In this document: in pieces, positions 3,083 through 20,000 of the stretch | Layout: the number at the start of each line of letters is the position of its first letter | How positions within the stretch are numbered: position 1 is the first letter of the stretch | NCBI RefSeq assembly: GCF_004010195.1 | Contig: NC_057756.1 | Coordinates: 9,045,952 to 9,065,951, forward strand | Origin: Chiloscyllium plagiosum | Taxonomy: Eukaryota | Direction: 5' to 3' | Length of the DNA: 20,000 nucleotides | Made by a program: the position numbers and the translations under genes | Notes under the pieces: model-generated | Database searches by the model: none | What the model saw: the letters and a program-made list of their open reading frames with translations, nothing else | Told to the model about the DNA's origin: nothing

Positions 3083-3375
3083 CAAGCCATACTGACCTTG
3101 AGTCCTTACGCACCCATTCACCCATACATGACAGCAGTATGCCTGTTTGGTATCTCTTCAGATCTGGGAGTTCCACCCCTTCATATCCTGCGGAAGTTGC
3201 ACCTTGGTAAATTTAATTAGGGGGCACCTCCTGCACCAAATAAATGATCCAAGCCCACTGACAAATCTCCACAGCACCTGTTTGGGTAATGACAACAGGA
3301 GCATCCTCATGGGATATAATAACCAAGGAAGAACATCCATTTTAATCAAGGTTATATGGCCTAGCGTGATATGAG
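3083..3375 (-). pseudogene. Inverted internal segment of L1 ORF2 (post-RT region)
   Basis: Minus strand reads LGHITLIKMDVLPWLLYPMRML...SFIWCRRCPLIKFTKVQLP / ELPDLKRYQ...VWLD, typical of the L1 GRIxLIKMxxLP...GGLxLP region but opposite in orientation to the rest of the L1. Confidence 0.85.
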
Positions 3376-3989
3376 TTCAGCTAGCTGGACGGCAGGTGTT
3401 GAAGACAACAAACACGCTGGTCTCCTGAACTTTTCCAATCGTAACTTCATATCGTCTCCAGCCAGAACATAAGCAAGTGGGTTAATGATGCTGTTCAAAC
3501 TGGCCATGACCCTGGCCACTTGGTAACCCAGATAAATATTTTTGAATGCACTGGCCCTGGAGTTGGAAATACCTCGAGATCAGGTTGGCGTTTCTCAGGA
3601 CATGGTAAGGAGCGAAGCAAAGGGATAACAAGAAAGTGACAATCAGCATGAGCTGAAGGCAGCTATCTGGCAAGCCTTGCTCCACGTTCTTACTGTGGAT
3701 CAGAACATCACAACGGGGCTGTAACAGCCAACAATGATGGGGAAAGGGAGGAAGAAAGTGATCACAGCCATGTACTCCCGCGTCTCCCTTATCGTAACAC
3801 CGTCGTAGCGTTCAGTGCCATTGAGATCGGCCTTGGTTAAATTTGGATCGGCCAAGGTTTGGGCTAGAACCAGCCCTCGGACCAGAACGCTGATGAGCAG
3901 TGAGTGGTGGCGATTCCAGCTGCCCAGCACCTTCATGGGGTGTACTGTGCCCAGGTACCGTTGCACACTGATACAAGTGAGGAATCCAA
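3376..3989 (-). pseudogene. P2RY1-like: P2Y purinoceptor 1-like class A GPCR fragment (TM3 to C-terminal tail), frameshifted
   Basis: Three frames join as GFLTCISVQRYLGTVHPMKVLG...FFLPFPIIVGCY / LIHSKNVEQ...CLQLMLIVTFLLSLCFAPYHVLRNANL / NIYLGYQVARVMASLNSIINPLAYVLAGDD. These are the P2Y TM3 FLTCISxxRY, TM6 CFxPYHxxR and TM7 YQVxRxxASLNSxxNPxxY motifs. Frameshifts near 3703 and 3540; TM1-TM2 absent. The exact subtype is uncertain. Confidence 0.85.
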
Positions 3990-5040
3990 GCCTCGCAGGT
4001 GAGATGTCCCCTCATCAACTTACTGTTGATGGATAAGATGAGATCTGTGGCTGAGCACTGTGAGAGCCCGATTGGCATAAATCAGGTGAAAACATGGAGG
4101 ATAATGTGGCAGGGTGAGGGCAATTTGCTTAAGGCTTCGCTGTTTACCCCATTTGGGGGAGCCCCAGGGGTCAATGGACTCCAGCTTCAGAGCATGGAAG
4201 GGTAAGGGAATCTCCTGACTGGGAGATTTATTCGAGGGAGAGATCTTGATGTCTTTCAACCAATTAAGTCAGAAATATAGAATTCCTAATAGGGACCTTT
4301 TCCGATACTTCCAGGTTAGGGATCATAGACAGAAGAAGACTACACCCTTCGCCCAGCCATACAAGTCAGTTATAGAGAGGAATACTTTGATGTGGGAGCA
4401 TCTCTTGGTTAGTACCATATATTACCTACAGAGAGGGAATGCCTTGGGGGATATGGAGAGACTCCAGGGATCTGGAATCAGGAGTTAGGGGGAAGAAATC
4501 TCATTGGAAGCATGGGAGGATATATAGGGGAAATGTAAAGGAAATTTCTATGTGCAATAAGGCATAAGCGATGCAATTCAAGATCCTTCACAGGGCCCAT
4601 ATGGCGCCAGAGAGGTTAGCAAAGTTTAACAGGACACCCCCCACCCAGATCTTCTCCGAAATGCCCCGAATATAAAATCAGCATAGGCACCCTCACACAT
4701 TGCTTTTGGTCCTGTTACAAGATTTGCAGATACTGGGCTGCCATAGTGAATGAGCTGGAGAAGATCCTGGGGAATTGAAGTTAAGGAGGATCCGGTATCC
4801 CTTCTTTTGGGATTACCGAATCTGTCCTCTCTGGATGAGCACAGGAGAGGTTATTTAACATTCTTACACACTGTGTGGGGAAGAACATTGCAATGAATTG
4901 GATGTTAGAAAATCCTCCAGGTCTTGTGGGGTGACGCACACTTGTGATGGTGCACCTCCCCCATGGTGCAGCATAGAACAGAAATGGCAGCATAGATACA
5001 GACCTATCGGTGGATCTGATTAGGCTTTTATATATAGCTG
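3984..5040 (+). pseudogene. L1 ORF2 C-terminal relic including the Cys/His (zf-RVT-like) region
   Basis: IQASQVRCPLINLLL...GDLFEGEILMSFNQLSQKYRIPNRDLFRYFQVRD...MQFKILHRAHMAPERL...KCPEYKISIGTLTHCFWSCYKICRYW. The end coordinate is approximate. Confidence 0.88.
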
Positions 5041-6300: not shown

Positions 6301-6590
6301 GTCCTTATTTCACAGCTAGAATGGATTTAATATAAAGTTAGTTTTGTGGGATTCAGTGGAAGCCCACAGGACAAGCAAGGGTTAAATTAGACTTGATTAG
6401 ACCAGGGTTGAGTCCTCAGCAGTTACTTTCAGGGCAAGAACAGTGGCCTTGTATTGCTAACTGGGGAAGTGGTCATAGAGGGAATGGGGGATCTTTAAAA
6501 TGATTGAAGCACTTAGGCAAACAGCAAGGGGTAACTGCAGAGATCAGTTTCAAATGCCCTTGCTATAGAAATTGACATTGCTTTGGAATT

Positions 6591-6788
6591 CTGGATTAGT
6601 GGTGCTGGAAGAGCACAGCAGTTCAGGCAGCATCCAAGGAGCAGCGAAATCGATGTTTTGGGCAAAAGCCCTTCTTTGCCCGAAACGTCGATTTCACTGC
6701 TCCTTGGATGCTGCCTGAACTGCTGTGCTCTTCCAGCACCATTAATCCAGAATCTGGTTTCCAGCATCTGCAGTCATTGTTTTTACCT
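6591..6788. mobile_element. Fold-back Penelope-like terminal-repeat insertion (family A) with the hammerhead centre deleted
   Basis: About 75-bp inverted arms (6591-~6665 vs ~6675-6749). Flanking direct repeat CATTGCTTT(G/A)GAATT at 6576-6590 and 6789-6803. Confidence 0.75.
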
Positions 6789-6945
6789 CATTGCTTTAGA
6801 ATTGACATTCCTATAGAAATTAACTTTGCGAGAGAAATTGACATTGTGAGAGACTTGACAAATACAGTTACACCCAAACCACAGAAACCACAAGAGTATA
6901 AGAATGTGAGCCATGATCCAACAGAGAAATCTGCCTTTTAACATC

Positions 6946-7455
6946 AGAGGAAGGGTCCTGGGGAAGGGTTACACCTGAAACGTCAAATTATCCACCTCCT
7001 GGTGCTGCCTGCCTTGCTGTGTTGCCCCAGCCTGCTGCCTGTCCCTCCTGATGCTGCCTGGCTTGCTGTGTTCTCCTAGGGAAGGGTCCTGGGGAAGGGT
7101 TACACCTGAAACGTCAAATTATCCACCTCCTGGTGCTGCCTGCCTTGCTGTGTTGCCCCAGCCTCCTGCCTGTCCCTCCTGATGCTGCCTGGCTTGCTGT
7201 ATTTTTCCAGCCTCCTGCCTGTTCCTCCTGATGCTGCCTGGCTTGCTGTGTTCTCCTAGCCTCCTGCTTGTCCCTCCTGATGCTGCCTGGCTTGCTGCAT
7301 TTTTCCAGCCTCCTGCCTGTCCAACCTGATGCTGCCTGGCTTTCTGTGATCTTCCAGCCTCCTGCCCGTCCCTCCTGGTGCTGCCTGGCTTGCTGTGTTC
7401 TTCCAGCCTCCTGCCTGGGGCTATTTCAGATCCTAGCATTTGCAGTTTTTTTTGT
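6946..7455 (+). repeat. PLE-derived minisatellite (~49-bp units) with a 131-bp higher-order duplication
   Basis: About 8 copies of CCTCCTGATGCTGCCTGGCTTGCTGTGTTCTTCCAGCCTCCTGCCTGTC. The block starting 6949 repeats at 7080. An exact 11-bp direct repeat CTTTTAACATC flanks it (6935-6945, 7456-7466). Confidence 0.85.
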
Positions 7456-7770
7456 CTTTTAACATCTAAGCAGCAGCCTTGCACCATCAATGTAGTTGTC
7501 TCGTTTTTGCAATTGTACCATCCATGTAACTGCCACACTTCTGCAATAAAGAATACATTGTGTAGTTCCCGTCCCCGGTTTTTCCTATTCCCAGGGGAAA
7601 CGAGTACCGAACAGTAACTTTAACTGCAAACTTCATGTCAGTGGGAAAACTGAGTTAGTCTTTTTACATTAACTGTTAGACCTGGTGTATTTGACCCCGC
7701 AGTGAAATCAAGCATTTGAATAATCATCTGACAATACTGAATGGGATGTGTTGGCCATGATCAAAATGAG

Positions 7771-7869
7771 GCAGTAGAGGGAACTGCAGATGCTAGAGAT
7801 TAGGGTCAAGATTAGAGTGGGGCTGCCTGACCTGCTGTGCCTTTGCAGCACCACTCTAATCTTGACCAG
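7771..7869. mobile_element. 99-bp mini fold-back PLE family A insertion
   Basis: Perfect 17-bp inverted repeat at 7804-7820 / 7851-7867. Exact 12-bp TSD GATCAAAATGAG at 7759-7770 and 7870-7881. Confidence 0.8.
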
Positions 7870-8982: not shown

Positions 8983-10900
8983 TCATAGTAATAGGAGTAG
9001 GCCATTTGGCCCATCGGACCTGCTCCTCCATTCATTAAGATCATGGCTGATCTGTTCTCATCTATCCTGATGAAGAGCTTATGCTTGAATGTTGATTCTC
9101 CTGCTCCTCGGATGCTGTCTGACTGGCTGTGCTTTTCCAGCACCACACTCTTGACTCTGATCTCTCCATCGTCTCAGCTCCTGCTACCTGCATTTTGCCC
9201 GTAACCCTTAATTCCCCTACCATGCAAAAACCCATTCAACTGTGTTTTGAATATATTTAATGAAGCTGCCTCTATTGCTTCCTTGGGCAGGAAGTTCCAC
9301 TGATTCACTACTCTTTGGGAAAAGCAGTTCCTCCTCATCTCTGTCCTAAATCTACTCTCCCTAATCTTGAGGCCATGTCCCCTCATCCTAGTCTCACCCA
9401 CCAGTGAAAACAACCTGCCTGCCTCTATCTTATCTCTCCCTTTCATAATTTTCTGTTTCTAAAAGTACCCTCTCATTCTTCTAAACTTTAGCAAGTACAG
9501 TCCCAGGCAGCTCAACCTCTCCTCAATGGGTAACCCCCTCAACTCCGGAATTAACCTGGTGAAACCTCTCTGCACCGCCTCCAAAGCCAGTATATCCTTC
9601 CTTAAGTAAGGAGACCAGAACTGCACACACAATACTCCAGGTACTGCCTCACTAACTCCTTGTACAGAATGTCCCTGCTCTTAAATTCAATCCTTCTAGC
9701 AATGAAAACCAGTGTGCTGTTTGTCTTCAAATTTCTGCAAATTCACCTGCAAATCAAATTTCTGTGATTTATGTATGAGTACTCCTAAGTCCCTCTGCAC
9801 AACATCATGCTGCAATCTTTTACCATTTAAATAATACTCTGACCTACTATTTGTACTCCCAGAGTGGATAACCTCACATTTACCACCATTGTATTCCATC
9901 TGCCAGACCCTTGCCCACTCACGTAACCTATCTAAATCTCTCTGCAGACCCTCCACATCCTCTGCACAGTTTGCCTTTCCACTCAATTTAGTGTCATCAG
10001 CAAACCTGGATATGGTACACTCGCTTTCCTCTTCCAAGCCATTAAAAATAGGATGAACAGTTGTAGGCCCAACACCAACCTCTGTGGCACCCCACCCACC
10101 ACTGATGTCCAACAGAAAAACACCTATTTACCCCAACTCTCTATTTTCTATTGGTTAACCAATCCTCTCTCCATGCTAGTACATTCCCCACACTTCATGC
10201 ATTCTTATCTTATGGATGACACTTTTATGCGGCACCTTATTGAATGCCTTCTGGAAATCAAGTCTACAACATCTACCTGTTCCCCTCCAATCACCATGCT
10301 TGTTACATCCTCAAGAACTCCAGTAAGTTTGTCAAACACAACCTTCTCTTCTTGAATCCATGCTGCATCTGCCTGATGGAACCCTTTCCATCCAGGTGTC
10401 TCACTATTTCTTCATTAATGTTAGCCTTCAGTATTTTTCCAACTACAGATGTTCAACTGACTGGCCTATAATTACCTGCCTTTTATCTACACCCTTTTTT
10501 AAACAGCGGTGTAACATTCGCTGTCTTCCAGTCTGCTGGGACCTGCCCGGAGACAACTGAATTTTGGTAAATCACCACTAATGCACCTACTATCACTTCC
10601 ACCATTTCTTTCAGCATCCTGGACCAGGGGATCTATCTACCTTTTGACCCACAAGTTTGCTCAACACTACCCCTTTAGTGATAACAATTGAATCGAGGTC
10701 CTCACCTTCCATCGGATCCTTAATATCATTCTTTTGCAAGTTAGATACATCTTCCATTGTTAAGACCGACACAAAATATTCAAGGCCTTGGCCATTTCAG
10801 AATTACACAATGTTAAATCCCCTTTCTCATCCTGCAAGGGACCTACGTCCACTTTAGCCACTCTATTCCATTTTATATATTTATAACACATTTTCCTATC
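8983..10900 (-). mobile_element. CR1 LINE, 5'-truncated (RT to 3' tail)
   Basis: ISRFADDTKLSGKANCAEDVEGLQRDLDRLREWARVWQMEYNGGKCEVIH and TRMRGHGLKIRESRFRTEMRRNCFSQRVVNQWN. GNYRPVS region near 10460-10480; tail at ~8983-9060. The 5' boundary is approximate. Confidence 0.92.
9061..9170 (+). mobile_element. PLE family A terminal-repeat fragment with degenerate hammerhead, nested in the CR1 tail
   Basis: CTGATGA-A-GAGC-TTAT-GCTT-GAATGTT at 9067-9093, followed by the family A body GATGCTGTCTGACTGGCTGTGCTTTTCCAGCACCAC. Confidence 0.75.
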
Positions 10901-12890: not shown

Positions 12891-13721
12891 TTAGGGGCAG
12901 TCAGCATAAATTGTCCAAGGGAAATCATGCCTCATGAACTTGATTGAGTTTTTGAGGACTGATGAGGGCAGAGCAGTGGTCATGAACTATATGGACTTCA
13001 GTAAGGCTTTGAACAATGTTCCTGATGGAAGACTGGTTAGCAAGGTTAGATTACGTGGAATAAAGGGAGAACTAGCCAGTTGGTTAAAGCACTGGCTCAT
13101 GGATAGAAAACAGAAGGTGGTGGTGGAGGATTTCTGTGACTGGAGACCTGTGACCAGTGGAGTGCCACAAAGATTGGTCCCGGGTCCACTGTTTTTTGTC
13201 AGTTATATAAATGATTTGGATATGAACATGCGGTATGTGGTTAGTAAGTTTGTAGATGATACCAAAATTGGAGGTGTAGTGGACAGTGAAGGTTACCTAA
13301 GAGTACAATGGCATCTTGATCAGATGAATCAATGGGCTGAGTGGCAGATGGAGTTTAATTTGGACAAATGTGAGGTGCTGCGTTTTGGAAAGGCAAATCA
13401 GGGCAAGACTTGTACACTTAATGGTAAGGTCCTGGGGAGAGTTGCTGAACCAAGAGACCTTGGAGTTCATAGTTCCTTGAAAGTAGAGTCGCAGGTTGAT
13501 AGGATAGTGAAGAAAGTGTTTGGTAGCTTGCCTTTATTGATCAGTGCATATAGTATAGGAGTTGGGAGTTCATGGTGCGGCTGTTCAAGACATTGGTTAG
13601 GCCACTGTTGGGAGTACTGTGTGCAATTCTGGTATGCTGTGAAACTTGAAAGAGTTCAGAAAAGATTCACAAGGATGTTGCCAAGGTTGGAAGATTTGAG
13701 CTGTAAGGAGAGGTTGTACAG
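12891..13721 (+). mobile_element. CR1 ORF2 RT relic
   Basis: ORF 12934-13746 reads YMDFSKALNNVP...VTSGVPQRLVPGPLFFVSYINDLD...SKFVDDTKIGG...WQMEFNLDKCEVLRFG...YCVQFW...LERVQKRFTRM. Confidence 0.92.
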
Positions 13722-14515
13722 GATGGTACGGTGGCTCAGTGCTTAGCACTGTTGCCTCACAGCACCAGGGATCCAGGTTCAAATGACAACACCCTCAGAG
13801 CCCTCCACTATCACCTGATGAAGGAGCATCGCTCCTAAAGCTAGTGTGCTTCCAATGAAACCTGTTGGACTATAACCTGGTGGTGTGTGATTTTTAACTT
13901 TGTACCTTGAAGACATTCTCTTCCTCTCTCTACAAGAATCTCAGTGAGTCTCTCTCTCTCTCACTCACTCACTGCAACCCCCAGGTCATCTCCTTTGCTC
14001 CGAAGTTCTTCAACATGTACTGACCAGCTCAGCACCAGGAGTTGGGAGTTCATGTGCGGCTGTTCAAGACATTGGTTAGGCCACTGTTGGGAGTACTGTG
14101 TGCAATTCTGGTATGCTGTGAAACTTGAAAGAGTTCAGAAAAGATTCACAAGGATGTTGCCAAGACTGGAAGATTTGAGGTGTAGGGAGAGGTTGTACAG
14201 GATGGTACGGTGGCTCAGTGCTTAGCACTGTTGCCTCACAGCACCAGGGATCCAGGTTCAAATGACAACACCCTCAGAGCCCTCCATTATCACCTGATGA
14301 AGGAGCATCGCTCCTAAAGCTAGTGTGCTTCCAATGAAACCTGTTGGACTATAACCTGGTGGTGTGTGATTTTTAACTTTGTACCTTGAAGACATTCTCT
14401 TCCTCTCTCTACAAGAATCTCAGTGAGTCTCTCTCTCTCTCACTCACTCACTGCAACCCCCAGGTCATCTCCTTTGCTCCGAAGTTCTTCAACATGTACT
14501 GACCAGCTCAGCACC
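13557..14515 (+). repeat. Recent tandem duplication, 2 x ~480 bp, of a CR1 + SINE head + PLE chimera
   Basis: 13557-14036 and 14037-14515 are nearly identical, with only a handful of differences. Confidence 0.95.
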
Positions 14516-14750
14516 ACCCTCACTACCTGTCGGACCTGCCAATCTTCCTTCCCACATTTCCGCTCCACCCTCCTCTCCGACCTATCACCTTTACCCCACC
14601 TCCAGTCACCTATTGCACTCTTTGCTACCTTCTCCCCCCCCCCCCCCCCCCCCCTGCCTCATTCCCGATGAAGGGCATTTGCCCGAAACGTCGATTTTCC
14701 TGCTTCTCGGATGCTGCCTGACCTGCTGTGCTTTTCCAGCACCACTGTGA
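14516..14750 (+). mobile_element. PLE family A terminal repeat with pyrimidine-rich leader, poly-C tract and hammerhead variant
   Basis: ATTC-CCGATGA-A-GGGC-ATTT-GCCC-GAAAC-GTC-GATT at 14661-14696, then the family A body. Confidence 0.75.
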
Positions 14751-15202
14751 TCTTTGCTCTAAGACTGGTGACTCCGAACATGTTCTGGGTCAGTGATGAA
14801 TATTTACTGTTTGAGGAAATGAAGGGAGTCAGAATGGTGGGGGGGCGGGGGGGTGATCGGTTCTTTTCACCTTCGGACCGGGTTTTGTCTATTTCAGTAA
14901 ATGCCGCGTTCGGCTGGATTCAGACTTGGCCTGTTCAGTCAGCGACTGCGTAGTCCCGTTTGAACAGCGGGTTTAATTTAACAATAATCGGGTTATTTTA
15001 AACACTGTAGGGGATCCTGTGAGGTATGGAAAAAGTAAACACCCAAAAATTCCTTGCAACAAAATCCTTATTTATCTAAACGAAAAACTTCAAGCTAAAA
15101 AGGAATCTTATTTAAATTTGTAAACGATATTTCTGTTTCATGTTTTAAGAAATGACGCTAAGTAATTTATTTATCCGCGCACTTTGAACGGAATACCAAA
15201 TA

Positions 15203-15300
15203 ATTTTACTGCTCCTCGGATGCTGCCTGAATTGCTGTGCTCTTCCAGCACCACTAATCCCGAACCTGGTTTCCAGCATCTGCAGTCATTGTTTTTAACC
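15203..15300 (+). mobile_element. PLE family A 3' fragment without hammerhead
   Basis: Near-identical to 6691-6788. Confidence 0.8.
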
Positions 15301-15510: not shown

Positions 15511-15606
15511 CAAACAACCAGCTGATGAAGAAGCAGCGCTCCGAGAGATAGTGTTTCCAAATAAACCTGTTGGACTATAGCCTGATGTTATGTAATTTTT
15601 AACTTG
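15511..15606 (+). mobile_element. PLE family B terminal-repeat fragment with degenerate hammerhead
   Basis: CTGATGA-A-GAAGC-AGC-GCTCC-GAGAGATA-GTG starting at 15522, then AAATAAACCTGTTGGACTATAGCCTG as in 13815-13900. Confidence 0.75.
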
Positions 15607-15760
15607 ACAAAATATAGCTTTAACTGAAAACTCTATGTCAATCCGAAATAGAGATTATAACTGTCAAACACTCACTATTTGGACAATCTGATGTGTTTAA
15701 GCCTGTATTTGTACAGTGTCTCCTATATTTTAAATGCCTGAAATTTAATAAGATAGGGAG

Positions 15761-15893
15761 CCCTTCATTCCGGATGAAGGGCTTTTGCCCGAAACGTCGA
15801 TTTTCCTGCACCTCTGATGCTGCCTGAACTGCTGTGCTTTTCCCGCACCACTCCAATCTAGAATCTGACCTCTAGCATCTGCAGTGCTCACTT
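15761..15893 (+). mobile_element. PLE family A fragment with hammerhead variant
   Basis: ATTC-CGGATGA-A-GGGC-TTTT-GCCC-GAAAC-GTC-GATT at 15767-15802, then the family A body and CTAGCATCTGCAGT end. Confidence 0.78.
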
Positions 15894-16139
15894 ATGCCTA
15901 GCGTACATCTATATAACGTACATCTGTACACCATTACAAGTTTCACTGACGAATCGTGCCCTAATGGAGTCTGTAAACATTGGTTCCGCTTTGTTAAAGT
16001 CAGTTCTTTGGGTCGGTCTGAATTTAAACTCGAAGTCGGTAAGGTATTGAGAGAACTCACATTGGCGAATGTAGTGGGAAGGGGATATTTAAATGGAGTT
16101 TATCCAGGCGGCACATCATAACAGGTTCAGGTCTCGCTG

Positions 16140-16989: not shown

Positions 16990-17660
16990 CTGTCGATGTT
17001 GAATTGGGGTGGACAAGATTAAAAATTACACAACACCATAGATGGTTACATCTATAACCATAGGTTATAGCTGTAACAGGGTTATTTGGAAGCATTAGCT
17101 TTCCAGCTGCTGCCTCTTCATCATGGTTATGGAACATGACCATGCGACACAGAATCTATAGCAAAGGCGTGACAATGCCATGGAGTTGCAATGATATATT
17201 AATCTACATTAATTTTTTAAAAACCCACAACATCAGGTATTAATTCTTAAACAAATTTGGATTAAGTCTGTCGTCTTTTAGAATGGGATATGGTGGTTTG
17301 GGTTCTTCAGTATGCAAATCTCAGGACTCCTTCTAATTTATATTCTCCAGGTGGCATCAATTTATCTAACAATGTGTAATTTCAGCTCAGACTATGTGTG
17401 AAGGGAAAGACTTAACCAATGTTGAGTCAGTTCTATTTCTAAAGTGGGGCTGACAGAATCTTCCATGGATTTCTGCAGGTTTTGAGCAAAATAATTCTGC
17501 AAATACAAATTCACCCAATAAACGTCTGTGTGTGTGGATGCAATTCAGAGACACTGGGAGCGTAAATCCATGTAAGATTCTGTCAACCCCACTTTATAAA
17601 TAGAACTGACTCAACATTGGTACAGTTTTTAGCTTCACACGTGGAATGCACTGTCTGAGT
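16990..17660 (-). mobile_element. PLE family B relic with an inverted terminal segment
   Basis: 16990-17130 is the reverse complement of the family B repeat (degenerate hammerhead ATGATGA...GAAAGCTA on the minus strand). A 58-bp inverted repeat lies at 17415-17472 / 17564-17621. Assigning 17130-17660 to the same element is inference. Confidence 0.6.
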
Positions 17661-18876
17661 GTACTCATTTACAAACATTTATTTTGAATTCTGTTCATCA
17701 AAATATTTCAATTGCAACAAATTTCATTGAATGAAACTTTGCTTTGGAAATTTGGAAAATAAGCAGGTGTTGGTAGGTCATTGAGCTCATCAGTTCACGG
17801 TCCAACTGGATTTCCATTTAAACCTGTCGCTACTTAGGTATTTCTTCATGAACATCCCTCAGAGCAGATATATTGGGAGCGTTAGAGGGTTTCAACAATG
17901 GGGTTTTTTAAAGCAAATGATTAACATGTGTAACTTATTTTAAAAAATGGAACAAGGTAATAAATAAAGGGATAGTCACAGGAATACTTTTAATGTGGAT
18001 TTAGTTTGGTTTTGGAAGGTTTGACGGCTGCTGTCATTCTGGCAGTGGGCCTGACCCTTTAGTTAGTTGAATGAAAGTTTCAAGCCCAGTGTACAGATTG
18101 GGTTGGTGCCAACAGCCTCTCTGAGTCATTCCAACCCCGATTACACATCTCTGGGGGATAGTGCGCAGTTAATTGATGTTTGCAACGCTTGGGACCAGAG
18201 TACTCAGGTTTGCAAGAATAATAGCCAGACTTCAAGGTAAAGTTATAAAGAGAGATTGCACATAAATTATACCTAGAATTTGGAAGGTCAATAAGAGGTG
18301 ACAGAGAGTCATAGAGATGTATAGCATGGAAACAGACCCTTTGGTCCAACTCGTCCACACTGACCAGCTATCCTAACCTAATCTAGTTCCATTTGCCAGC
18401 ACTTGGCTCATATCCCTCAAAACCCTTCCTATTCATATAACCATCCAAGTGCCTTTTAAATGCTGTAATTGTACCAGCCTCCACCACTTCCTCTGGCAGC
18501 TCATTCCATACACGTACCACCCTCTATGTGAAAAAGTTGCCCCTTAAGCCCCTTTTATATATTTCCCCTCTCACCCTAAACATATGCCCTCTAGTTCTGG
18601 ACTCATCCACCTCGGGGAAAAGACCTTGTCTATTTATCCTGTCCATACCCCTCATGATTTTATAAACCTCTAAGGTTACCCCTCAGCCTCCAACGCTCCA
18701 GGGAAAACAGCCCGAGCCTATTCAACCTCTCCCTATAGCTCAAATCCTCCAACCCTGGCAACATCCTTGTAAATCTTTTCTCATCCTATCTACCCTCGAC
18801 TCCACTTTCAAGGAGCTATGAACCTGCACTCCAAGGTCTTTATTTAGCAACACTCCCTAGGACTTTACTATTAAGT

Positions 18877-19095
18877 AGGTAAAAACAATGACTGCAGATG
18901 CTGGAAACCAGATTCTGGATTAATGGTGCTGGAAAAACACAGCAGTTCAGGTGGCATCCGAGGAGCAGTAAAATCGACGTTTTGGGAAAAACACTTCATG
19001 GTTCCTGATGAAGGGCTTTTGCCCGAAACGTCGATTTTCCTGCTCCTCAGATGCTGCCTGAACTGCTGTGCTTTTCCAACACCACTCTTATCATC
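18877..19095. mobile_element. Fold-back PLE family A insertion with back-to-back hammerhead motifs
   Basis: Inverted arms ~18921-18999 / ~19008-19085. TSD-like TACTATTAAGT (18866-18876) / TACCATTCAGT (19096-19106) duplicates host CR1 sequence. Confidence 0.8.
19001..19036 (+). ncRNA. Minimal type-I hammerhead ribozyme motif, intact core
   Basis: CUGAUGA (19005-19011), extra A, stem II GGGC-UUUU-GCCC, GAAAC (19025-19029) and GUC cleavage triplet (19030-19032). Palindromic ACGU stem III; short imperfect stem I GUUC/GAUU. Confidence 0.75.
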
Positions 19096-19364
19096 TACCA
19101 TTCAGTGTATAAGTCCTGCCCTGATTTGCCTTTCCAAAATGCAGCTCCTCACATTCTGTGGTTGGAAATGCAGTATAAATGCAAGTCTTTTTCCTTTCTC
19201 AAGACTGTACCATTGAGGAAGCAATATTCTGTCAAATGTTGTTGTTGAATTTTTAAAATTAAACCCCTTAAAAATATTTTTTATATCTAATATTTATGCA
19301 CTTTAATCAAAGTGCAATTTTTCAATAGTCATTATAAATAATTTTTGAATTTGAAATTATTTTC

Positions 19365-19565
19365 AAAGTTAAAAATCACACAACACCAGGTTCTAGTCCA
19401 ACAGGTTTATTTGGAAACCCTATTTGAAATATTTACTTCACAACCATCTGTTGAAGGTGCAGTGCTCCGAAAGACAGTGCTTCAATTAAACCTGTTGGAC
19501 TATAGCCTGGTGTTGTAATTTTTGACTTTGTCCACCCCAGTCTAACACCGGCATCTCCAAACCAT
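19365..19565. mobile_element. Fold-back PLE family B insertion with degenerate hammerhead
   Basis: Inverted arms 19365-19416 / 19481-19529 enclose CTGTTGA-A-GGTGC-AGT-GCTCC-GAAAGACA-GTG (starting 19448). Confidence 0.75.
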
Positions 19566-19614: not shown

Positions 19615-20000
19615 GTTAGGAAGCAGCTCATTCAGCCCAATTAAGTTCACACCAACCTCTTAGAGGATTCCACTCAGACCCATCTGTATACCTATAACCC
19701 TTCACTTTCCATGGCTAATCCACCTCTCACCTGCACATCCTTTGGACACTGTTAAATTTAGAATGGCCAATCCACCATGACCTGCACATTCCTGGGCACT
19801 ATGGTGAATTTAGCATGGGCAATCCACCCTGACCTACACACTCCTGGGGACTATGGTGAATTTAGCATGGCCAATCCACCCTGACCTGCACATTCCTGGG
19901 CACTATGGTGAATTTAGCATGGCCAATCACCCTGACCTGCACATCCCTGAGGACTATGGTGAATTTAGCATGGCCAATCACCCTGACCTGCACATCCCTG
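19615..20000 (-). repeat. HE1-type SINE 3' part expanded into a ~52-bp minisatellite (runs off the window)
   Basis: Units of ACTATGGTGAATTTAGCATGGCCAATCCACCCTGACCTGCACATTCCTGGGC start at 19798, 19850, 19902 and 19953, with older copies upstream. The unit is the reverse complement of SINE segment ~5661-5710. Confidence 0.88.

Follow-up and report, generated by a model that had tools for sequence, protein, structure and literature searches.

An intact minimal hammerhead core within a head-to-head insertion of an abundant, probably Penelope-like repeat in Chiloscyllium plagiosum

The stretch of Chiloscyllium plagiosum DNA analyzed in this study (20,000 nucleotides; referred to below as the window) carries on its + strand, at 19005-19032, the complete core of a minimal type-I hammerhead ribozyme. 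The question raised by this locus is whether an RNA transcribed from it could cleave itself, or whether the core is simply carried along by a repeat. To judge from the modelled RNA folds and the structure of the surrounding DNA, the copy at 19005-19032 is most likely an inert core carried by a very common repeat.

The motif agrees at every core position with the published consensus of the minimal hammerheads (min-HHRs) of Penelope-like elements (PLEs) (PMC4209133 Fig. S3). Each element of the core was located where the original prediction had placed it, from C3 (19005) to C17 (19032): CUGAUGA (19005-19011) is followed on the + strand by an extra A (19012), by stem II (19013-19024), in which GGGC (19013-16) and GCCC (19021-24) form four G-C pairs capped by a UUUU loop (19017-20), and by G12-A13-A14-A15.1 (19025-28). 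The helix-III stub, ACGU (19028-31), is palindromic at positions 15.2/16.2, and the cut site is predicted between 19032 and 19033. Helix I (19003-19034, + strand), which the original prediction left undescribed, comprises two base pairs, 19004-19033 (C-G) and 19003-19034 (U-A), followed by a U-U mismatch, and lies at the weak end of the published range, which includes 2-bp cases. The defining features of the class, i.e., the CUGANGA, GAAA and UH core strings, an extra base between A9 and G10.1, a G10.1-C11.1 pair and a helix II of at least 4 bp, are all present. These observations support the proposed classification of the motif as a minimal type-I hammerhead of a PLE-type repeat, with a palindromic helix III able to pair only in a dimer. 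The assumption that an additional A between A9 and G10.1 can be tolerated also has a precedent among natural hammerheads, namely that of the CChMVd plus strand (in the part of PMC3705267 considered here).

The original prediction had overlooked the context in which this motif resides, a head-to-head insertion of 219 bp (18877-19095) that has a tail on one side and is flanked by a target duplication of 11 bp. Both of its arms are copies of the same repeat (family A), which resembles a pLTR-like end module. The forward arm (19002-19095, + strand), in which the match to the family ends at approx. 19092, has no tail, and the inverted arm (18877-18999, - strand), which starts at the A6 position, carries a tail of approx. 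40 bp at its outer end (18877-18917, - strand). The two arms are separated by only 2 bases at the head-to-head junction (19000-19001). In the inverted arm C3-U4-G5 are absent and G12 has been changed to A, and its core is therefore dead. The left (18866-18876) and right (19096-19106) copies of the target-site duplication, both read on the + strand, are identical at 9 of 11 positions.

The insertion is hosted by a fragment of an older LINE (18783-19155, - strand), the flanks of which match the segment 13367-13505, which lies within the remnant of an ORF matched by Pfam RVT_1 (E 7.5e-10). The duplicated target is present only once in this related LINE (13416-13426), which indicates that the 219-bp unit represents a single insertion into the older element. 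Two further inverted pairs of family A were identified in the window (6588-6788 and 7771-7866), bordered by target duplications of approx. 12 bp. Head-to-head inverted pLTRs with a one-sided tail, found in all three family A pairs, and short target-site duplications are features of EN+ PLEs.

The arms of 18877-19095 look like members of different subfamilies, since they differ at the position corresponding to 19039 and by a 2-base indel preceding the tail; the arms of 6588-6788 and of 7771-7866 are of the same type. Elsewhere in the window, a family A copy (15759-15897) follows a 9-10-base mirror stub whose end coincides with the A6 position at which the inverted arm 18877-18999 starts, and the copy at 15203 starts near the cut site (at the equivalent of 19034-19038), with a start blurred by the target duplication. 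Among the joints listed, partner-arm starts at 19036-19058 were considered as a possible sign of cleaved templates, and were rejected because the smallest offset (33-34 bases, in three rows) resembles an artefact of the 31-letter words and because 14 rows lay beyond the listing.

The window also contains a second hammerhead-headed family (family B), represented by 13812-13905, 14291-14384, 15519-15605, 17013-17125 and 19364-19560, the last of which again consists of two inverted arms, one of them tailed. The cores of family B (at 13815, 14294, 15522, 19448 and, in reversed orientation, 17123) are all decayed; their layout comprises a 3-bp helix I (CAC/GUG), a stem II of 5 bp and the palindrome AGCU in place of ACGU. 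A third subfamily, with stem II GGGU/ACCU and a 3-nt loop, occupies 6945-7462, and in its body a stretch of 131 bp has been duplicated and one of 49 bp expanded in tandem, with a target duplication of approx. 10-12 bp surrounding the unit. Hammerhead-headed repeat units account for approx. 2.2 kb of the 20 kb window, with boundaries set by hand. Pieces of LINE, SINE-like and family B sequence are spanned by a 479-bp tandem duplication (13557-14516; 98.8%), which is either a recent event or an artefact of assembly, and a 52-bp tandem repeat (19710-20000) continues past the end of the window.

Three contig runs and one RNA single-cell run were aligned to 18996-19105 with a likeness cut of 80%. 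The matches in the contig runs are at the level of the family, the exact locus not being identified in them (best share of words 0.38). The numbers of matching records were 47,517, 40,461 and 72,449, respectively, and tens of thousands of records in all three runs indicate that family A is very abundant in the organisms concerned; the abundance proposed in the original prediction is supported (40,000-72,000 family matches per contig run). Joints between opposite strands that start at 19002-19003 were seen in all three.

The assignment of family A to the Penelope-like elements is probable. No ORF encoding an RT or GIY-YIG domain was detected beside family A among the 17 (of 84 listed) ORFs of the window that were scanned with Pfam, and the assignment therefore rests on architecture and motif. 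The scan of these 17 ORFs gave RVT_1 and 7tm_1 matches and no GIY-YIG; the 7tm_1 match (E 1.3e-4) belongs to a fragment of a rhodopsin-family GPCR extending over several frames (3361-4011, - strand), which looks like a pseudogene. Only one copy of family A in the window (14503-14760) extends upstream of the hammerhead. This upstream part, pyrimidine-rich and with a poly-C run, is probably the 3' region of the element, and its translation (14502-14747) had no relatives at E values up to 0.001. The upstream sequence of the copy at 14665 ends in CCTCA, as does the loose-end consensus in all four runs, and its extension indicates the existence of a longer source. The repeat types of the window would fit an elasmobranch, and Penelope is listed as present in the whale shark in the transposable-element literature. 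Within the literature searched on PLE hammerheads in sharks and elasmobranchs, a search that lay outside most subscription journals and the supplement of the retrozyme preprint, there was no account of family A.

We consider it highly probable that 18877-19095 is a 5'-truncated head-to-head insertion of the end module (pLTR plus tail) of a very abundant PLE family, in which the core has stayed intact by chance and is silent. By analogy with published work on PLEs, the GIY-YIG endonuclease of the element would nick the target, and the element's RT would then copy the RNA of the end module at both sides of the target, coming to a halt at the hammerhead's upstream edge. In the source element the hammerhead would probably be a weak self-cleaver, assisted by dimerization or by a protein and kept by selection, and the copies would decay after insertion. 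In read-through RNA of the + strand the antisense arm would come first, giving rise to a predicted long hairpin in which the core would be silent.

Several other explanations were weighed against this one. Instead of stubs of full elements, family A could be a non-autonomous, retrozyme- or SINE-like unit that replicates through a small RNA of its own, possibly circular or palindromic, and uses PLE enzymes in trans. The very high abundance of the family and the many arms that begin at the upstream edge of the motif are in line with such a unit, and non-LTR retrozymes, proposed to be derivatives of PLEs, have been described in one chondrichthyan genome (in the part of bioRxiv 10.64898/2026.07.22.740005 considered here). 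We nevertheless regard this as unlikely, since the head-to-tail tandem units with complete hammerheads that characterize retrozymes are absent from the window, the junctions vary among the three inverted pairs, unlike what an inherited palindromic master would produce, and a longer upstream source is present at 14503-14665.

The preferred reading, i.e., a silent copy of a PLE end module, was further examined by RNA folding, all results of which are equilibrium predictions. In the isolated motif stem II is formed with a pair probability of approx. 1.0, and the value for helix I is 0.03. The + strand of the whole insert is predicted to adopt one long hairpin (MFE -122.8 kcal/mol) with a stem II probability of 0, and forcing the hammerhead fold upon it costs +26.8 kcal/mol. 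In a growing + strand RNA the probability of stem II is already 0 when 19034 is reached, the antisense arm being predicted to cover the cleavage site together with stem II and GAAA before any pairing with a partner; in an RNA starting at the junction, stem II is kept (0.96-1.0). For two copies, the double-hammerhead fold (-13.3 kcal/mol) is approx. 15 kcal/mol worse than the best alternative dimer fold (-28.2 kcal/mol). The - strand carries only the dead core.

These predictions speak against the suggestion that this copy could cut a + strand transcript with the help of a second copy: the adjacent copy is antisense, the predicted hairpin sequesters the core and the double-hammerhead fold loses to its competitor. 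For the copy at 19005 to work as a ribozyme, pairing with another copy and cutting a host + strand transcript after 19032, the RNA would have to start at the junction and would also require a partner or a protein. The fully intact core and the retention of stem II in junction-started RNA are compatible with such activity, and partners do exist, since RNA of the family was found on both strands in the related single-cell run (2,511 of 12.96 million records, at the level of the family and not of the locus), where it looks like read-through of host transcripts. A PLE hammerhead of the anole has moreover been found to cleave with the help of a protein (PMC11167929, in part). Apart from the sequestration of the core by the antisense arm, the unfavourable double-hammerhead fold and the low probability of helix I even in isolation, what makes a working ribozyme here very improbable is the behaviour of related motifs: min-HHRs show no activity as monomers and weak activity as dimers or trimers (PMC4209133), and the anole hammerhead, according to the part of PMC11167929 considered here, cuts only with protein, is not needed for insertion in vitro and is represented by no RNA-seq reads that start or end at its cut site. 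No pile-up of RNA ends was seen along the stretch in the single-cell run (X21), a result that carries no weight here, since a fragmented poly(A) library would hardly show a 5'-OH end and the run is tied to the family and not to this species or locus.

The intactness of the core does not in itself call for a function at this locus. A fuzzy search of the window (up to 7 edits) recovered eight cores, one of which is intact. Given the rate of CpG decay at four key sites, approx. 48-59% of aligned sequence would be expected to escape, assuming independence of the sites, so that one intact core in eight requires no selection on the copy at 19005.

At the level of the family, the core and stems of the motif are conserved. 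The sister strings reported in the original prediction are present at their positions (GAGC/GCTT from 9075 and GGGT/ACCT from 6966, with loops TTTT, ATTT and TTAT). Their description as compensatory variants of stem II could not be upheld in that form. Each of the cited copies has one two-sided change, namely G-C to A-U at 9076/9085 (copy 9067) and C-G to U-A, accompanied by a 3-nt loop, in the 6958 subfamily. Each also has a CpG-type change of G-C to G-U in stem II, and both copies constitute weak evidence because their cores are broken. Two-sided changes of stem II did not reach 4% in any contig run (the 6958 subfamily may fall below the 80% cut), and changes of this kind were seen solely in decayed copies, when different subfamilies or families were compared.

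Variation of at least 4% in the contig runs is located at N7, in loop II, at CpG sites and in downstream bases. Among the changes listed at this level, none fell on the 16 constrained non-CpG sites of the motif, compared with three of the five free sites within it (Fisher p 0.0075) and with 11 of 45 positions downstream (p 0.052), values obtained from depth-weighted contig fractions at non-independent sites, with a site set fixed after the table had been seen. Positions 19003-19006 were omitted from this comparison as edge-biased, and a single T>A row, found in X4 as well as X6, is missing from the listing: it is probably 19089, a position that shows T>A in three arms of the window, and could be U16.1. 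Within these limits the depth fractions reveal conservation, not covariation. The sparing of core and stems by the variation of the family suggests that the motif has been kept by selection in the source elements.

The palindromic helix-III stub might also be thought of as an RNA-RNA docking signal, which would join two element RNAs on a dimeric RT-endonuclease so that the nicked strands are primed on separate templates. If true, this would explain both why head-to-head pairs meet at the hammerhead's upstream edge and why the arms of 18877-19095 look like different subfamilies. Such a role seems highly doubtful, because an interaction of 4 bp offers little strength, the window's two remaining pairs consist of arms of the same type, and Naiads, which lack hammerheads, also produce inverted copies (in the part of PMC8557442 considered here). 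Mixed-subfamily arms, if they prove common, would point to two RNA templates per insertion.

It remains to be considered whether the resemblance to a hammerhead could be fortuitous. Loose core strings alone are not above the chance level (1 match, compared with 2.59 expected; at least one in 152 of 200 shuffles). A helix-aware descriptor, composed of the core, a stem II of at least 4 bp, palindromic 15.2/16.2, UH and a helix I of at least 2 bp, matched once in the window and in 1 of 1,500 first-order Markov windows; when a helix I of at least 3 bp was demanded, the window gave no match. As a negative control, the descriptor was applied to 40 bacterial matches of the core strings, and none of the 40 conformed to it; these matches, from prokaryote genomes, are regarded as chance. 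No further copies of the motif were found in the viral contigs or the metagenome contigs scanned.

The covariance-model check envisaged in the original prediction was negative for the canonical Rfam hammerhead families, none of which matched the whole window at E values up to 5 or a 65-base piece at E values up to 10, the output consisting only of hairpin-driven miRNA matches below gathering scores. This silence may be due to the fact that the Rfam models expect a real helix III. That the resemblance to a hammerhead reflects mere coincidence within the repeat or a non-catalytic relic, as the lack of an Rfam match, the weak helix I and the spread of Naiad PLEs without canonical hammerheads (PMC8557442, in part) might imply, is scarcely credible in view of the single descriptor match in 1,500 simulations, the variation that spares constrained sites and the retention of the structure, with different letters, by family B.

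With the insertion at 18877-19095, a very abundant family, probably of cartilaginous fish, joins a class known since 2014. The insertion also illustrates that activity can hardly be judged from an intact core, since the ribozyme of a fold-back insertion can be silenced by the insertion itself. The wider question concerns the role of PLE hammerheads in the replication cycle, to which a single locus gives no answer; a genome with many copies in several families is good material in which to compare arm starts with the cut site and to determine the frequency of mixed-subfamily pairs.

Among known systems, the animal non-LTR retrozymes (bioRxiv 10.64898/2026.07.22.740005; PMC7229834), as far as the parts of these sources considered here extend, resemble family A in that a type-I hammerhead is located in a short repeat that is non-coding and linked to PLEs. 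In contrast to these retrozymes, which are defined by head-to-tail tandem hammerhead units, the present locus is an inverted pair with one intact core. In Poseidon PAc of the green anole (Frangieh 2024, PMC11167929, in part), as here, a pLTR hammerhead precedes the two RT start points by which the tail is delimited; the PAc ORF starts at stem II, an arrangement with a conserved frame that was not seen here, and cleavage, only predicted for the present motif, was assayed in that system. Units of EN+ PLEs (Arkhipova 2013, PMC3846280; Craig 2021, PMC8557442) likewise combine head-to-head pLTRs with a tail of 30-40 bp on one of the arms and with short target-site duplications, the latter of 8-10 bp compared with approx. 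11-12 bp in this study. Unlike the published units, in the portions of these reports considered, the insertion has no ORF between its arms, which look like different subfamilies.

The closest counterparts are the PLE min-HHRs, a class that was described in 2014 and that already took in fish PLEs as well as pairs on opposite strands (Cervera and de la Pena 2014, PMC4209133). They share with the motif CUGANGA with one extra base, the G10.1-C11.1 pair, GAAA, palindromic 15.2/16.2, the lack of a loop III, and UH, as well as a genomic distribution in thousands of dispersed single copies with nearby pairs on opposite strands. None of the 56 motifs read from Fig. S3 of PMC4209133 is from a cartilaginous fish. 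Helix I of the present motif (2 bp plus U-U) is shorter than in most of the motifs in that report, which have at least 3 bp, and is matched by a few with 2; the Nematostella (2) motif of the same figure has a layout nearly identical to that of 19005-19032.
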